Source: Candidatus Aenigmatarchaeota archaeon
Lineage (GTDB): Archaea > Aenigmatarchaeota > Aenigmatarchaeia > GW2011-AR5 > JAHLMP01
DNA length: 61,132 bases
Assembly: GCA_039091735.1 (NCBI GenBank)
Contig: JAWCLB010000003.1
Span: 1,295-62,426 of the forward strand
Direction of reading: 5' to 3'
This document shows positions 19,661-58,269 of the stretch, piece after piece. The position numbers and the translations under genes were made by a program. Position 1 is the stretch's first letter, and the number at the start of each line of letters is the position of its first letter. The notes below the pieces were generated by a model that did no database searches, was not told the origin of the DNA, and was given only the letters and a program-made list of their open reading frames with translations.

Positions 19661-21199
19661 TTATACTCTTTTCCACAAATCGTCTTCAATCCTCTTTCCT
19701 TCTCTCTTTTCCCATTCGCTTATGGGAATAGAATGCCTTCTTCTTATCTCCTCTCCAACACCCAAGCCATTATAGGCGCAGAAAGGAACAATCCCTTCAA
19801 AGGTTGCATAGTGAATCACGCACATCTTTAGTCTCTCAATGTTTATGTTCCACGGATCCTGAAACCACATCGAACCTATGTAAAGGGACTTATAATGAAA
19901 TTGTCTTAGCTCGTTGTACGTGCCTCCTATAATTGCCTTTATCAATATCTTTTTCAAATCAATTGGCGACTTTTCTTTGTCTATAAACTTGTCGATATTT
20001 CTTATGAAAGACAAAGCTATTCTGGGCTTTGTAAGCAAACCTCTAGTTTTTGATTGTTCTTTAATAAAAGTCATCAATCCTTCTACATCGACAAACCTTG
20101 TTATTGGTATTATTTTAGAATCTGAAATGAAAACATAAGTTGCGGCGCCACACATAGGGTTGGCTGTGAACTCAACCTGTTCCTTTCCTTTTAATACCTC
20201 GGCCAATTTTGATATAGGGTATACAAATGGCACAGGATAAAAATCGTCTTTCTTTATTTGGCCGTCCAATCCGTCTTCCAACACACCAAAAAGTTCAGCA
20301 TAGTCTACCCCTTCTTTTTCTATTATCTCTTCGGTTATATTCTGAAGCCTTCCACAAAATGAAACTGGTTGAAAGTTAACACCCCTTACAACGTCTATGT
20401 TCTCAACAGCATATTTAATTATCTCTGGCATCTCATGAAGATTTCTTTTCATGACAACGGGAACAAGCACAACACTTGAGAAGCCTATTTTCCTTAGATT
20501 GTCGATGGCCTTTTTATTTTCATTAATCCATGGGTTTGTATCTTCAGAGACACCATCAAAACTCATGTAAACAGTATTTACTCCTGCTCCAATTATTTTT
20601 TTGCAGTATTCCAAGGATTCTGACATTTTTATTGAGTTGGTATTTAGCTGGATATGGGTAAATCCCAATTCCTTTGAGATCTTTATAATATCAACCAAGT
20701 CATCTCTGATTGTTGGTTCTCCTCCTGTTATCTGAATGGCCTTTGATGGTACTGGCTTCTCATCTCTGGCCTGTCTCAGAATTTTTCTTATATCATCTAA
20801 ACTTGGTTCATAAACATATCCAGCAGCGCCTGCATTCATAAAGCAATAAGGACATCTAAGATTGCATCTATTGGTTACCAATAGGTTGGTCAAGACGGAT
20901 TGAGAGCAATGTTCCGGATAAAGCTTTTCTTTAGAATATGGTGTTGAATCAACACCCTTTGTTTCATTTTTAATCGATTTATATGTAGGCCCCTTTCCGA
21001 TTACCTTGTATTTCATCCATTTATAATATAATTTAGCGTCACTGAAAACAATAGACTTAAAATCGCCATGCTCAATGCATTTTTTCTTAAGCCATATTTT
21101 GTTATCTTCCTCAACAATATGTGCTTTTATTTTATGAATTCTGCCTTCTTTGAAGCATTTTGGACAAATGCTTTCCGTGTCTTCCAAAATCTTTTCCAT
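19661..21199 (-). CDS. Radical SAM enzyme with N-terminal zinc/iron-ribbon; tetraether lipid synthase (Tes/GDGT-MAS)-like architecture
   Basis: 512 aa. CX3CX2C motif NRCNLRCPYCF, followed by ITGGEPT. N-terminal CPKC...KKCIEHGDF, and a long C-terminal domain. The radical SAM call is firm. The Tes-like assignment is from memory of COG1964-type proteins. Confidence 0.7.
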   Translation of the reverse strand: MEKILEDTESICPKCFKEGRIHKIKAHIVEEDNKIWLKKKCIEHGDFKSIVFSDAKLYYKWMKYKVIGKGPTYKSIKNETKGVDSTPYSKEKLYPEHCSQSVLTNLLVTNRCNLRCPYCFMNAGAAGYVYEPSLDDIRKILRQARDEKPVPSKAIQITGGEPTIRDDLVDIIKISKELGFTHIQLNTNSIKMSESLEYCKKIIGAGVNTVYMSFDGVSEDTNPWINENKKAIDNLRKIGFSSVVLVPVVMKRNLHEMPEIIKYAVENIDVVRGVNFQPVSFCGRLQNITEEIIEKEGVDYAELFGVLEDGLDGQIKKDDFYPVPFVYPISKLAEVLKGKEQVEFTANPMCGAATYVFISDSKIIPITRFVDVEGLMTFIKEQSKTRGLLTKPRIALSFIRNIDKFIDKEKSPIDLKKILIKAIIGGTYNELRQFHYKSLYIGSMWFQDPWNINIERLKMCVIHYATFEGIVPFCAYNGLGVGEEIRRRHSIPISEWEKREGKRIEDDLWKRV

Positions 21200-49993: not shown

Positions 49994-50503
49994 ATGATTT
50001 ATGATTTTTTTGATAACGTAGCAACATGGTATCCCACAGAGCCTGGGACTTATTACATAAAAATCTTGTGCGATGATGAAAGAAGCTCTTATTGCACAGC
50101 TGTGAGTGTTGCTAATGCAATCGTAAATCCAAACGTCTTTGTCTCTTGTCCTTTTTGCCAGGCAAGTAAATGCGATTGCTATATTTCAGGATGTCAAGAA
50201 GGCGTGCTTAACATATATGCAAAATCTGATTGCATTGCTACGCCTTCTCTTGCCTATGACTTTTACAATGGAAAGATATCATGGAGCGCTCCTAAAGGAG
50301 GTGATTATTTTATAAAGGTTTTGTGTGATGACAAAGCCAAGTCTGGCTGCATTCCATTGCATGTTGCTGAAAATTTGGAAAGTTGCATAGGAAGATGCAA
50401 TGAATATACAAAGGGTGCTGCATGCCAGTGTGACATAGGCTGCATAAAGAATAATGATTGCTGCAAAGACTTTTGTGAAGCATGCTCAAAGCTTTGTGCT
50501 TAA
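49994..50503 (+). CDS. Cys-rich protein: tandem ~75-aa repeats plus C-terminal somatomedin-B-like module
   Basis: 169 aa. The C-terminus is SCIGRCNEYTKGAACQCDIGCIKNNDCCKDFCEAC. The repeat homology continues upstream of the ATG in frame, to the stop at about 49876-49878. Confidence 0.6.
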   Translation: MIYDFFDNVATWYPTEPGTYYIKILCDDERSSYCTAVSVANAIVNPNVFVSCPFCQASKCDCYISGCQEGVLNIYAKSDCIATPSLAYDFYNGKISWSAPKGGDYFIKVLCDDKAKSGCIPLHVAENLESCIGRCNEYTKGAACQCDIGCIKNNDCCKDFCEACSKLCA

Positions 50504-52842: not shown

Positions 52843-53553
52843 TAAATTTTTCTTCTTTTTAATTTTTACTTTTTAAAGATTAGTTTTATTTCTAATATAT
52901 TTTGGAAGCGCTTATTTAACGAATTGCTGCAAAGATAGATTAAAGATATCGGTTTTCATAAAGAAATATTAGAAGAGAGGTATGAAGACTGGTTGAAAAA
53001 AGGAATATTAGCAGAGATGATTTTCTCTTCAAACCTTTTCAGAATTTGATGCAAATATCAAAGACGTGAAAAATTTTATTCAAAAAGTCAATAAAATTCT
53101 TGAATGTTTGCTTTGATGAAGCAATTGAAAAGAAACTATTAATGAACATTAAAGGCAAGAATTTAGGATTAAGAGATCTCATTTAGATAATCTTTGAAAA
53201 GCTCTTATCTTTTTGTAAATAGAAAAAATAAGCGTAAGATTTTATAATTTAATTACTCAAAGATTAGATATAAGGCCAGAGGATTACTATTTATTGACAA
53301 TTAAGAATCTAGCACTAAATCTGCAGAATTAATTGACATAGAAATTCTTTCAAGAATCTGAATCAACTAAAATTAAAGAGGAATTTTTTGAGGGACAATT
53401 TCTTGAAATAATTTGTATTTTAGGTTTTGTTGTAGTCTTACAAAAAAATGGTTGTAGAAATCATATTTTATAAGTTCTCTTTTGTTAGAAAGCTAATCTT
53501 TGCATAATACCCGCAATGGTTAAATACTTAAAAAACAATTTTTATTTGATTTA

Positions 53554-53673
53554 GCGAGAGTAGCCAAGTGGTCAAAGGCGCTAGGCTTAGGAGCTAAGGG
53601 CGAAGTTCAGGAGCTTGGCGTTGAGTCACCTAGTCCCTTAGTGGGTTCGTCGGTTCGAATCCGACCTCTCGCA
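53554..53673 (+). tRNA. tRNA-Leu(UAG), class II, 36-nt canonical intron (53592-53627)
   Basis: GCGAGAG TA GCC AAGTGGTCAAA GGC G CTAGG CTTAGG|intron|A CCTAG, variable arm TCCCTTAGTGGGTTC, GTCGG TTCGAAT CCGAC CTCTCGC A. BHB helix is CTTA/TGAG with bulges GGA and TCA. Confidence 0.88.
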
Positions 53674-53710
53674 TCTTTGTAAGTTGCATTATAACCTGCA
53701 CAGCGACGAA

Positions 53711-53826
53711 GCTGATAACCGGAAGGTCGGGAGTTCAAACAGGTTAACGCACCATAGCGTTTGTTGAGAAAATCTCCCCTGGCCCATGCTTAAAGGGCCG
53801 GTAGCTTAGTCTGGTTGGAGCGTCCG
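53711..53826 (+). tRNA. Circularly permuted tRNA-Ile(GAU) gene (nt 31-73 upstream of nt 1-30) with an additional 33-nt T-loop intron
   Basis: 53711-53739 = G31 CTGATAA CCGGA AGGTC GGGAG TTCAAA. 53740-53772 is the insert. 53773-53786 = T CTCCC CTGGCCC A. 53787-53794 is an 8-nt linker. 53795-53826 = GGGCCGG TA GCTT AGTCTGGTTG GAGC G TCCG. All four cloverleaf stems pair. Leader and trailer form hBHBh' (see findings). Confidence 0.8.
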
Positions 53827-53908
53827 GGCTGTGCAAGTTATCTATTCAATATTATCTAACTCTAATAACGAGAAATAGTTCAAAACTGAGAAAATAAAAA
53901 ATAAATAA

Positions 53909-54721: not shown

Positions 54722-54824
54722 TTACTCACCAGTAATATTATAAACCGAAAAGTATTTAAAGTCTCTCAAGTATTTTTGATACTTTTCAGCAGTCAGTAGG
54801 TAGATATTATCATATCGTGTTGCA

Positions 54825-54895
54825 TGGACCCAGCGAGACTCGAACTCGCGTCTCCGCGCTGCGAACGCGGTGTCCTGCCACTAGACTATGGGCCC
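54825..54895 (-). tRNA. tRNA-Ala(CGC), uninterrupted
   Basis: Minus-strand sequence GGGCCCA TA GTCT AGTGGCA GGAC A CCGCG TTCGCAG CGCGG AGAC GCGAG TTCGAGT CTCGC TGGGTCC A. The G3:U70 Ala identity pair is present. Confidence 0.92.
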
Positions 54896-54906
54896 ATTTT
54901 ATTGAG

Positions 54907-56945: not shown

Positions 56946-58118
56946 TTAGCTGAGAATCTTTAGTCCAATCTCTTTTATTCTCTTTTCATAATCAGCTTTT
57001 GTCTCTCCTTTATTTTCCTCTCTCAGGGCATTCAAGAGGTTTAACGAGGTTTTAACATCTTGCAACCTTTTATTCTTGAAATTAAACTTTTTCAAATACT
57101 CCTCAAATAACCTTTTTTCTGTCTCTTCTCTAGTCTCTTCTATTATTTCTATCTCCTCTTCTTCTTTACCCAGCAACTGATTTCTATTTATATAAATTAC
57201 TTTAGCACCTCTCTCTAGAAAATTTTCTTTTATCAAAGAAAAATCTATGTCATAGGGTTTTCCGCTTCTAAGCCTTCCAAATACTTTTATTAAAATTACT
57301 TTATCCTTCACATCAGAAAGGATATCTTTTATTTCCTCCATAACGCTATTTGGATTCTTTCCTGTGACATCGTATTCTAATATGCTTACTTCAGCCTCCT
57401 TTATTTCTATGAATTTGTAATCTATTTTACTATCATCTACGGAAACGATGAAGAAGCCCCTGTCTTCACCTCTTGCTGTATTTTCTAGATCTTGGTACGA
57501 ATAACCGAACAAAGAGCCAGAATAGGCAACTAATGTGTTGCCGATTTTATTAATAGCTCGCTGATGCACATGACCACAAGCTAAATAGTTTACCTCTCCC
57601 TTGAACCTTTTCAAGCTTATTGGCTCTAATCTTGGATCCGGAAAAACCTCTTCTATAGCTGCGTGCAAAACAAATATCTTAAAGGAATTATTATCTAAAA
57701 AGCTTATTTGCGAGATATCTTCCTCGATCTCACCCCTCTTCAATGCCGAGACCCCTGCAATCTTTGCTCTCGTTTTCTTATCTTCAATAAAATTCTTAGT
57801 TAATTTTACAAAAAGGCCAGCAGAGTGCAAAACATCTATTATTGAGGCTTGAATTGGCGAATAATCGTGTGAGCCATAAATCACATAAATCTCTATTCCT
57901 CTGTCCTTCACTTCTCGCATCTTCTTTACAGCTTTACTCAATATCTTAGCGTCTGGCATGTGATTGTCGAATAAGTCACCAGCAACAATAATAAAATCAA
58001 CATCCTCTTCTATGCATTTATCCATTGCTTTTAAGAATGCATTTAGATTCATTTCTCTTAGTGTTAAATCTCTAAAAGCACCGAGATGAACATCTGCGAT
58101 ATGAGCAAATTTTATCAT
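56946..58118 (-). CDS. mre11: Mre11 nuclease
   Basis: MIKFAHIADVHLG, AGDLFD, GSHD, HAAIE, GHVH phosphoesterase motifs. The ORF-track N-terminal extension to 58268 is rejected because it overlaps tRNA-Leu(CAA). Confidence 0.9.
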   Translation of the reverse strand: MIKFAHIADVHLGAFRDLTLREMNLNAFLKAMDKCIEEDVDFIIVAGDLFDNHMPDAKILSKAVKKMREVKDRGIEIYVIYGSHDYSPIQASIIDVLHSAGLFVKLTKNFIEDKKTRAKIAGVSALKRGEIEEDISQISFLDNNSFKIFVLHAAIEEVFPDPRLEPISLKRFKGEVNYLACGHVHQRAINKIGNTLVAYSGSLFGYSYQDLENTARGEDRGFFIVSVDDSKIDYKFIEIKEAEVSILEYDVTGKNPNSVMEEIKDILSDVKDKVILIKVFGRLRSGKPYDIDFSLIKENFLERGAKVIYINRNQLLGKEEEEIEIIEETREETEKRLFEEYLKKFNFKNKRLQDVKTSLNLLNALREENKGETKADYEKRIKEIGLKILS

Positions 58119-58170
58119 GAATAGATTTTGAAAATAAAAATTAAAAATGTTAAATCTAAGTTGAAATAAT

Positions 58171-58267
58171 GCGAGGGTAGCCAAGCGGTCAAAGGCGGTA
58201 GGCTCAAGACCTACTGGCTTAGTGCCTTCGCAGGTTCGAATTTTTTGCGAGAATCCTGCCCCTCGCA
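58171..58267 (+). tRNA. tRNA-Leu(CAA), class II, with 13-nt intron at T-loop position 59/60 (58241-58253)
   Basis: GCGAGGG TA GCC AAGCGGTCAAA GGC G GTAGG CTCAAGA CCTAC TGGCTTAGTGCCTTC GCAGG TTCGAA|ttttttgcgagaa|T CCTGC CCCTCGC A. BHB helix is TTCG/CGAG with bulges AAT and AAT. Confidence 0.85.
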
Positions 58268-58269
58268 TT

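Follow-up and report, generated by a model that had tools for sequence, protein, structure and literature searches.

How can a working tRNA arise from a locus that encodes its two halves in inverted order? The question is raised by a tRNA-Ile(GAU) locus at positions 53691-53841 of a 61,132-nucleotide (nt) stretch of DNA assigned to a Candidatus Aenigmatarchaeota archaeon (assembly GCA_039091735.1, contig JAWCLB010000003.1, positions 1,295 to 62,426), hereafter termed the window. The 3' part of the tRNA (nt 31-73) is encoded ahead of the 5' part (nt 1-30) on the same (+) strand. With a probability of roughly 85%, the sequence evidence assembled below argues for a functional, circularly permuted tRNA-Ile(GAU) gene of the Aenigmatarchaeota (DPANN), the two parts of which are joined at position 30/31 in the anticodon stem.

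All elements of the locus are located on the + strand. It begins with a leader, ATAACCTGCACAGC (53691-53704), which provides one strand of an outer helix (h) and would be discarded after cleavage. The leader is followed by GACG (53705-53708), the leader strand of a central helix (H), whose partner C25 G26 U27 C28 (CGTC, 53821-53824) is part of the 5' exon, and by the 3-nt bulge AAG (53709-53711), in which a predicted cut at 53710/53711 makes G53711 nt 31 of the tRNA. The 3' part extends from G31 to A73 (53711-53786) and contains a 33-nt insert in the T-loop. Its first section (nt 31-59, 53711-53739) comprises the anticodon loop CTGATAA, the 3' strand of the anticodon stem, the variable loop, the 5' strand of the T-stem and TTCAAA. 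The T-loop intron (53740-53772, nominally at 59/60) separates it from the second section (nt 60-73, 53773-53786), which consists of T60, the T-stem strand CTCCC, the acceptor strand CTGGCCC and A73. A linker of 8 nt, tgcttaaa (53787-53794; A73-UGCUUAAA-G1 in the RNA), forms the loop of the precursor acceptor hairpin and leads into the 5' exon (53795-53826), which uses 32 nt for nt 1-30 due to two extra D-loop bases and includes the acceptor strand GGGCCGG, the D-arm, nt 26 and nt 27-30. The locus ends with the 3-nt bulge CGG (53825-53827), where a predicted cut at 53826/53827 retains C29 and G30 and discards G53827, and with the trailer GCTGTGCAAGTTAT (53828-53841), the second strand of the outer helix, which would likewise be discarded. 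The gene does not encode CCA, and no open reading frame (ORF) of at least 60 amino acids (aa) overlaps the locus. A split, trans-spliced tRNA gene with its halves as separate transcription units was considered and rejected, as both halves share one strand and the 8 nt between them are too short to accommodate a promoter.

Cleavage after the second bulge base on both strands joins ...UCCG to GCUGAUAA... and thereby completes the anticodon stem. When 53795-53826 is joined to 53711-53786 and the T-loop insert is taken out, the result is a 75-nt product, which ARAGORN identifies as tRNA-Ile(gat) with a perfect cloverleaf; removal of the insert is required for this call. All four stems of the product are paired, the T-loop reads TTCAAAT, and G18 G19, U8, U33 and A73 are present. 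The exact boundaries of the T-loop intron are immaterial to the product, since an A-run renders the registers from 56/57 to 59/60 equivalent, and the intron itself holds an internal hairpin (AACGC/GCGTT). In its native order the locus is detected neither by ARAGORN nor by the Rfam tRNA model, even at E<=5, as a permuted gene predicts. A custom scan of both window strands, which demanded a T-arm, an acceptor 3' strand, a short linker and a complementary acceptor 5' strand, returned one AT-rich match besides the locus (19948-20033), and this match lacks tRNA features when inspected by eye.

The flanks of the two exons form a bulge-helix-bulge (BHB) motif. Leader and trailer are complementary at 13/14 positions, with a single C.A mismatch, and the two 3-nt bulges follow the canonical BHB geometry, with one bulge per strand, located 3' of the respective helix strand. 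In the minimum free energy (MFE) fold of the precursor (z = -3.7), leader and trailer pair with each other, the linker closes the acceptor hairpin, and the T-arm forms. The initial annotation, made from the letters of the window, had proposed a permuted tRNA-Ile(GAU) gene with complementary leader and trailer, the CGTC/GACG helix and the bulges CGG and AAG, and every one of these elements is found where it had placed them. Its term "textbook" for the hBHBh' motif is slightly generous with regard to the inner helix h', and the second intron it had announced exists as the T-loop insert, albeit with a relaxed rather than a strict BHB.

The same permuted tRNA-Ile gene is present in a sister lineage, whose T2SS-F protein, encoded near the tRNA genes, is 60% identical to that of the window. 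This group is represented by six sequence records, namely L125 (ENA ERZ27289263), L126 (NCBI GCA_964608845.1) and L138, L144, L150 and L151 (JGI metagenomes). Both lineages share the gene order T2SS-F, tRNA-Glu, tRNA-Leu(UAG), permuted tRNA-Ile ... tRNA-Ala, Rad50, Mre11. Synteny walks along the T2SS-F gene were informative from P0010 (leading to L125) and P0008 (leading to L128), and those from P0005, P0006, P0009 and P0021 revealed no tRNA-Ile near the T2SS-F gene.

Between the window and the L125 group, the exons differ at merely 4/75 positions. Two of these differences fall into the D-loop, and the other two constitute a compensatory change of one acceptor pair from C4:G69 in the window to G4:C69 in the L125 group, which links the downstream 5' half with the upstream 3' half. 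The discarded segments have diverged far more: the linker is 8 nt long in the window and 4-5 nt in the L125 group (TTAA or TTAAG), and the T-loop intron measures 33 nt in the window versus 11 nt in L125 and L138 (with ...TTGAGAA common to both). The outer leader and trailer, helix H (A-U versus G.U) and the discarded bulge base (G versus T) differ as well. The distance from A73 of tRNA-Leu to the leader helix is 3 nt in the L125 group, compared to the 17 nt between tRNA-Leu and leader in the window. In the L125 precursor the leader/trailer helix, acceptor hairpin and T-arm form as in the window (z = -4.5). Such near-constant exons amid drifted discarded segments are, on comparative grounds, the signature of selection on the mature tRNA.

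Colinear relatives of the permuted gene occur on other archaeal contigs, where a metagenome scan and one synteny walk identified 11 loci in five sequence groups with a tRNA-Ile(GAU) in normal exon order and a cis-intron at exactly 30/31. The intron comprises 48 nt in L128, 31 nt in L137, L139 and L149, 19-20 nt in L145 and L148 (which contain an additional intron at 53/54), 14 nt in L142 and 13 nt in L140, L141 and L146. All spliced products are tRNA-Ile(gat), and the genes share with the permuted ones the helix G[AG]CG / C25 G26 U27 C28, the bulge positions and the cut rule. The introns of at least 19 nt possess outer helices of divergent sequence (CCAGG/CCUGG, CGC.GCC/GGC.GCG and CCAC/GUGG), and the 13-14 nt introns are devoid of an outer helix, their 5' bulge lying within the hairpin loop that closes the central helix. 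As a side observation, the colinear gene at L145:3811-4170 (-), and likewise those of L148 and L143, combines its 30/31 intron (19-20 nt) with a 17-nt T-arm intron at 53/54, as compared to 59/60 in the gene of the window.

These relatives fix the junction of the permuted gene. At the third base of the bulge on the 5' half, the window has G, the L125 group and L128 have T, and L152 (a second permuted lineage, see below) and most colinear-intron genes have A; a base that varies in this way is not part of the tRNA. In L125 a T at this position would mispair with C39, and thus nt 31 stems from the upstream half and the junction is 30/31, as the initial annotation had it and as the cis-intron position and cut rule of the colinear relatives corroborate. 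The leader-side bulge of the relatives reads AA|G, AG|G or TG|A, and its third base invariably pairs with nt 39. The leader strand of helix H conforms to G[AG]CG in 13/13 distinct permuted and 30/31-intron sequences (with a one-sided change from A-U to G.U), a constancy partly imposed by the metagenome search pattern, which required GRCG.

Covariation of the BHB core was assessed in an alignment of eight sequences, including the permuted genes of the window, L125 and L138 and the colinear genes L128, L137, L139, L149 and L145 (introns of at least 19 nt). In this alignment 92% of the cells pair, and 6/7 outer-helix pairs change on both sides. None of 500 shuffles (0/500) scored as high in covariation as the alignment itself, and with the partner slid by 1-3 columns pairing fell to 28-50%.

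A second permuted lineage came to light through L147, in which the tRNA's 3' half is located at a contig end; its follow-up led to L152 (NCBI GCA_023256115.1) and L153 (JGI). The order of elements in L152 is leader AGACCUAUCCAGC, GACG, AA|G, nt 31-73, the linker AU, nt 1-30, CG|A and trailer GCUGGAUAGGUCU. Its outer helix pairs perfectly over 13 bp, the T-loop intron is missing, and the fold, again with leader/trailer helix, acceptor hairpin and T-arm, has a z of -5.65. Compared with the window, leader and trailer have a core in common (ACCU...CAGC / GCUG...AGGU), with 8/12 leader bases shared, and show three consecutive compensatory pairs.

The L152 gene directly follows the genes for rpL30 and a THEP1-like nucleoside triphosphatase (NTPase). 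The same rpL30-NTPase slot harbours a colinear, intronless tRNA-Ile(GAU) in L154, L156, L158 and L161. The permuted gene of L152 thus occupies the colinear slot of its relatives, implying that the colinear gene was replaced at that slot in the L152 lineage. The mature tRNAs of L156 and L152 are identical except at the 4:69 pair, where the change is compensatory, and at a single base of the D-loop. Moreover, the colinear genes have a conserved AU immediately ahead of G1 that matches the AU linker of L152, and beyond the trailer the 3' flank picks up again. This layout fits an in-place rearrangement, in the course of which the 5' half would have kept its position.

Two further observations concern this slot. 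The public NTPase call P0121 (187 aa, L152:2816-3379) reads on across leader, upstream tRNA half and linker as far as the TAG of tRNA nt 8-10, such that its 23-residue tail is translated tRNA sequence; in the colinear relatives the same tRNA TAG terminates an NTPase of 164 aa. Long NTPase calls (187-190 aa) may accordingly flag an overlap with the tRNA gene. In L154 (3490-3652) two Ile tRNA genes are situated 1 nt apart, the colinear tRNA-Ile(GAU) being followed by a tRNA with a UAU anticodon and a 16-nt 37/38 intron, which ARAGORN reports as "tRNA-???". This tandem is the kind of arrangement invoked as precursor of permuted genes, and the UAU tRNA provides an example of AUA decoding in a DPANN-like archaeon.

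Several observations weigh against a functional permuted gene. Helix h' consists of 2 bp only (C32-G24 and U33-A23). Helix H (C25-C28) competes with the D-stem pair G10-C25 and two anticodon-stem pairs, and its 4 bp are not predicted in the MFE fold of the precursor, which is why support for this helix is drawn from the comparative evidence. The covariation alignments were assembled by hand around structural landmarks and hence lean towards structure. The T-loop intron of the window offers a central helix with 3/4 pairs or else a 5-nt bulge, and a strict BHB was rejected for it on these grounds, the introns of L125 and tRNA-Leu(CAA) fitting the motif well. No splicing endonuclease, RtcB or RNase P protein was found among the 38 window ORFs scanned against Pfam. 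Finally, 4/5 sampled lineages with a related NTPase (three named Aenigmatarchaeota by NCBI) contain a colinear intronless copy in the slot.

The last of these points bears on an alternative according to which the locus is a pseudogene, the decaying remnant of a tandem duplication in which the 3' part comes from one copy and the 5' part from the copy after it, with a working colinear gene elsewhere in the genome. Tandem duplication is indeed the favoured origin model of permuted genes (PMC3978253), L154 demonstrates two Ile tRNA genes in immediate succession, and the slot behind rpL30 and the NTPase, often occupied in related lineages by a colinear tRNA-Ile(GAU) without intron, lies outside the window. 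A remnant of this sort would not be expected to retain its arrangement in a lineage with a neighbouring protein of only 60% identity, to keep its exons nearly constant and an acceptor change compensated across the two halves as all non-exon segments drift, or to maintain the leader/trailer helix through compensatory changes. Nor would a precise BHB persist in a pseudogene, and in L152 the permuted gene sits in the very slot of the relatives' colinear gene. We therefore regard a pseudogene as improbable; the pattern of exon conservation, compensation and drift, together with the ancestral slot of L152, indicates a gene under selection.

For the production of the tRNA from a functional permuted gene we propose the following pathway, in the manner of the C. 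merolae (Cyanidioschyzon merolae) and Thermofilum pendens genes. Transcription would generate a single RNA, which probably includes the upstream tRNA-Leu(UAG) (53554-53673, +; 36-nt canonical 37/38 intron; Rfam tRNA score 52.4 bits), the end of which is located 17 nt before the leader. A candidate promoter, the TATA-like box TTAAATAC (53520-53527, +), was read from the sequence about 30 nt upstream of tRNA-Leu(UAG), TTTAAAT is found at a comparable distance upstream of the L125 tRNA-Leu, and no TATA-like element was seen in the 17-nt spacer between the Leu and Ile genes. In the transcript, leader and trailer would pair and, together with the GACG/C25-C28 helix and the two 3-nt bulges, form the BHB. 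The archaeal splicing endonuclease is predicted to cut after the second nt of each bulge (53710/11 and 53826/27), upon which an RtcB-type ligase would join G30 to G31, yielding a circular pre-tRNA with a complete anticodon stem. The same enzymes would excise the 33-nt T-loop intron. RNase P and tRNase Z would presumably open the circle at the acceptor stem by cutting out the 8-nt linker, and CCA would be added, as none is encoded. The gene anatomy, the mature cloverleaf, the conserved and covarying BHB and the junction are shown by the sequences; that both tRNAs share a transcript, which enzymes act and in which order, and that a circle arises is modelled on C. merolae, where circular intermediates have been detected.

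The order of events is the sole point on which another account departs from this pathway, and the end product is the same. According to it, the gene is functional yet no circle is formed: RNase P and tRNase Z would cut the linker first, and the paired pieces would subsequently be cleaved at the BHB and ligated like a split tRNA. The sequence leaves the order of steps free, pairing over the 13-14 bp of the leader/trailer helix and the 7 bp of the acceptor stem could hold the pieces together, and 30/31 is likewise the position where the halves of split tRNA-Lys(CUU) are joined in Nanoarchaeum equitans and Staphylothermus (PMC4090602). Yet C. merolae, the sole experimentally studied system, showed circular intermediates, and linkers of 2-8 nt would form a small hairpin loop, maybe a poor substrate before the tRNA body is in place. 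Processing without a circle is therefore given little credence here, and the circular route remains the preferred version of the permuted gene. That the locus is an assembly artefact, or that two partial tRNA copies came to lie side by side by chance, might be suggested by the metagenome-type contig and by a neighbouring 270-aa ORF whose exact product has no record in the public collection searched. The probability of this is negligible, given that the same arrangement recurs in separate ENA, NCBI and four JGI metagenome assemblies (and the second lineage in three sources), that the halves fit to the nucleotide with covarying stems, and that the scan of the whole window produced no comparable chance case.

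Where did the permuted gene come from? Descent from a colinear tRNA-Ile(GAU) with a 30/31 cis-intron is most likely, judging by the relatives described above, and an ancestor of this type fits the tandem-duplication-and-loss model for permuted tRNA genes. No further tRNA-Ile was found within the 61-kb window by ARAGORN, Rfam or the custom scan. With somewhat better than even odds, we suggest in addition that throughout a clade of Aenigmatarchaeota the permuted tRNA-Ile(GAU) with its 30/31 junction serves as the working, and possibly the sole, gene for this isoacceptor, and that the clade preserves all three stages: intronless colinear, 30/31-intron colinear and permuted (including L152 in the ancestral slot). 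If so, these genes would form the first natural series to allow a direct test of duplication and loss as the origin of permuted tRNA genes, and some tRNAs "missing" from DPANN genomes might be hidden permuted genes. As ARAGORN and the Rfam tRNA model miss the gene, surveys of DPANN genomes would record no tRNA-Ile(GAU), a point of relevance to claims that these reduced genomes have incomplete tRNA sets.

The locus is part of a small cluster of tRNA genes. Among named homologues, those nearest to the adjacent 645-aa T2SS-F/FlaJ-like protein belong to Candidatus Aenigmatarchaeota (62% identity), in agreement with the DPANN-like context proposed at the outset. The window has a G+C content of about 35% and contains archaeal core genes, which encode the RNA polymerase subunits A', A'' and B, a class II Asp/Asn/Lys-type tRNA synthetase, SerRS and a GatB/GatE-family protein, as well as FEN1, GAPDH, Rad50/Mre11 and a PAC2-family protein. 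A 169-aa cysteine-rich ORF (49994-50503, +) matches the Pfam Somatomedin B domain (E = 1.5e-7), which occurs mostly in extracellular proteins of animals and is unusual in an archaeon.

In addition to tRNA-Leu(UAG), three tRNA genes with normal exon order were identified in the window. The tRNA-Glu(CUC) gene (52601-52504, -) contains two introns, an 18-nt D-loop insert and a 12-nt insert at or near 37/38. Its orthologues in L120 and L125 directly follow the T2SS-F gene, and the L120 copy, which has larger inserts, is missed by Rfam at the gathering threshold. The tRNA-Ala(CGC) gene (54824-54896, -) lacks an intron. In the tRNA-Leu(CAA) gene (58171-58267, +) the variable arm is long and the T-loop is interrupted at 59/60 by an intron of 13 nt, similar in style to that of the permuted gene, with a central helix TTCG/CGAG and the bulges AA|T on both sides; Rfam aligns just 58171-58232 and skips the T-arm. 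A 440-aa Mre11 ORF (56946-58268, -) overlaps this gene, and the true Mre11 start is therefore probably the internal Met of MIKFAHIADVHLG. Three window tRNAs other than the permuted one thus carry BHB introns (D-loop, 37/38 and 59/60), suggesting that the cell already processes BHB introns at non-canonical positions.

A search of genome contigs for the junction of acceptor 3' strand, linker and acceptor 5' strand yielded no archaeal permuted gene among the matches listed, which were mostly chance matches in GC-rich bacteria. One of them merits description, with the proviso that a search demanding this very junction entails an ascertainment bias. L077 (480-670, -; JAIBAN010000092.1), from a metagenome-assembled genome named "Blastocatellia bacterium", resembles a permuted tRNA-Ile(GAU), with nt 27-73 (including the complete anticodon arm), a 9-nt linker and nt 1-26 enclosed by long complementary leader/trailer helices. 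Its MFE fold is a clean permuted cloverleaf (z = -3.7). The contig is bacterial or phage-like and features an array of 28 tRNAs for every amino acid but Ile; the permuted-looking tRNA is located about 1.7 kb further on the same strand. Matches in phage databases are short (51 nt) and limited to tRNA-Lys genes of Mycobacterium phages. BHB splicing is not expected in bacteria, and L077 could be a two-piece tRNA or something else.

How does the gene compare with known systems? Permuted tRNA genes are very rare. A review published in 2014 lists 34 permuted tRNA genes with junctions at 15/16, 20/21, 37/38, 50/51 and 59/60 (Soma 2014, PMC3978253), and the only archaeal ones among them are the iMet and Tyr genes of Thermofilum pendens, both permuted at 59/60 (PMC3978253; Chan 2011, PMC3218864). 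Later papers, up to 2025, still name T. pendens alone for archaea, the searchable literature contained no later archaeal case, and full-text searches on permuted tRNAs in DPANN archaea and on tRNAs and introns in Aenigmarchaeota retrieved no such case. The initial annotation's assertion that permuted tRNAs have been published solely from C. merolae, algae or nucleomorphs and T. pendens is thus accurate for the literature searched, and none of these genes is permuted at 30/31.

The T. pendens genes resemble the gene described here in being archaeal, in having a very short linker (7 and 1 nt, versus 8, 4-5 and 2 nt in the window, the L125 group and L152) within the known range of 1-85 nt (PMC3978253, PMC3218864), in the BHB at the junction, in an additional cis-intron within the same gene and in being missed or scored low by standard tRNA finders. 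They differ in the junction, which is placed at 59/60 in the T-loop rather than at 30/31 in the anticodon stem, in the encoded CCA, in the isoacceptor and in the host, a crenarchaeon instead of a DPANN archaeon. Permuted tRNA in T. pendens has been argued to be essential and single-copy. For T. pendens a lateral acquisition was suggested (PMC3218864), whereas the present gene has relatives with a cis-intron at the same position as well as syntenic colinear genes.

The genes of C. merolae, prasinophyte green algae and the Bigelowiella nucleomorph share the architecture, do not encode CCA and in some cases contain an intron (Soma 2007; Maruyama 2010; PMC3978253). The presumed route is also the same, with BHB cleavage, ligation to a circle and processing by RNase P and tRNase Z. 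In contrast to the archaeal gene they are eukaryotic nuclear or nucleomorph genes, none of them is permuted at 30/31, and tRNA-Ile is absent among the 34 listed.

Position 30/31 is itself a known non-canonical intron position (Yoshihisa 2014, PMC4090602), and the split tRNA-Lys(CUU), one host of which is a DPANN archaeon, is broken at exactly this site and repaired via a BHB formed by complementary flanks (PMC4090602). The split tRNA is assembled by trans-splicing from separate genes and transcripts, whereas the halves considered here are 8 nt apart in inverted order. Further counterparts are the colinear tRNA-Ile genes with a 30/31 intron: exons are near-identical, central helix, bulge positions and cut rule are identical, and the outer helix of the introns of at least 19 nt is the equivalent of the leader/trailer helix. 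In these genes the exon order is normal, the BHB closes an intron of 13-48 nt, and neither linker nor circularisation is needed. Compared with the known permuted tRNA genes, the architecture is thus the same and the chemistry presumably so, and the junction type (30/31), the isoacceptor and the phylum are new. The locus adds the DPANN superphylum as a second archaeal group to the permuted tRNA genes, and its 30/31 cis-intron relatives, together with the colinear genes in synteny, allow its proposed descent from an intron-containing gene to be tested by comparison.

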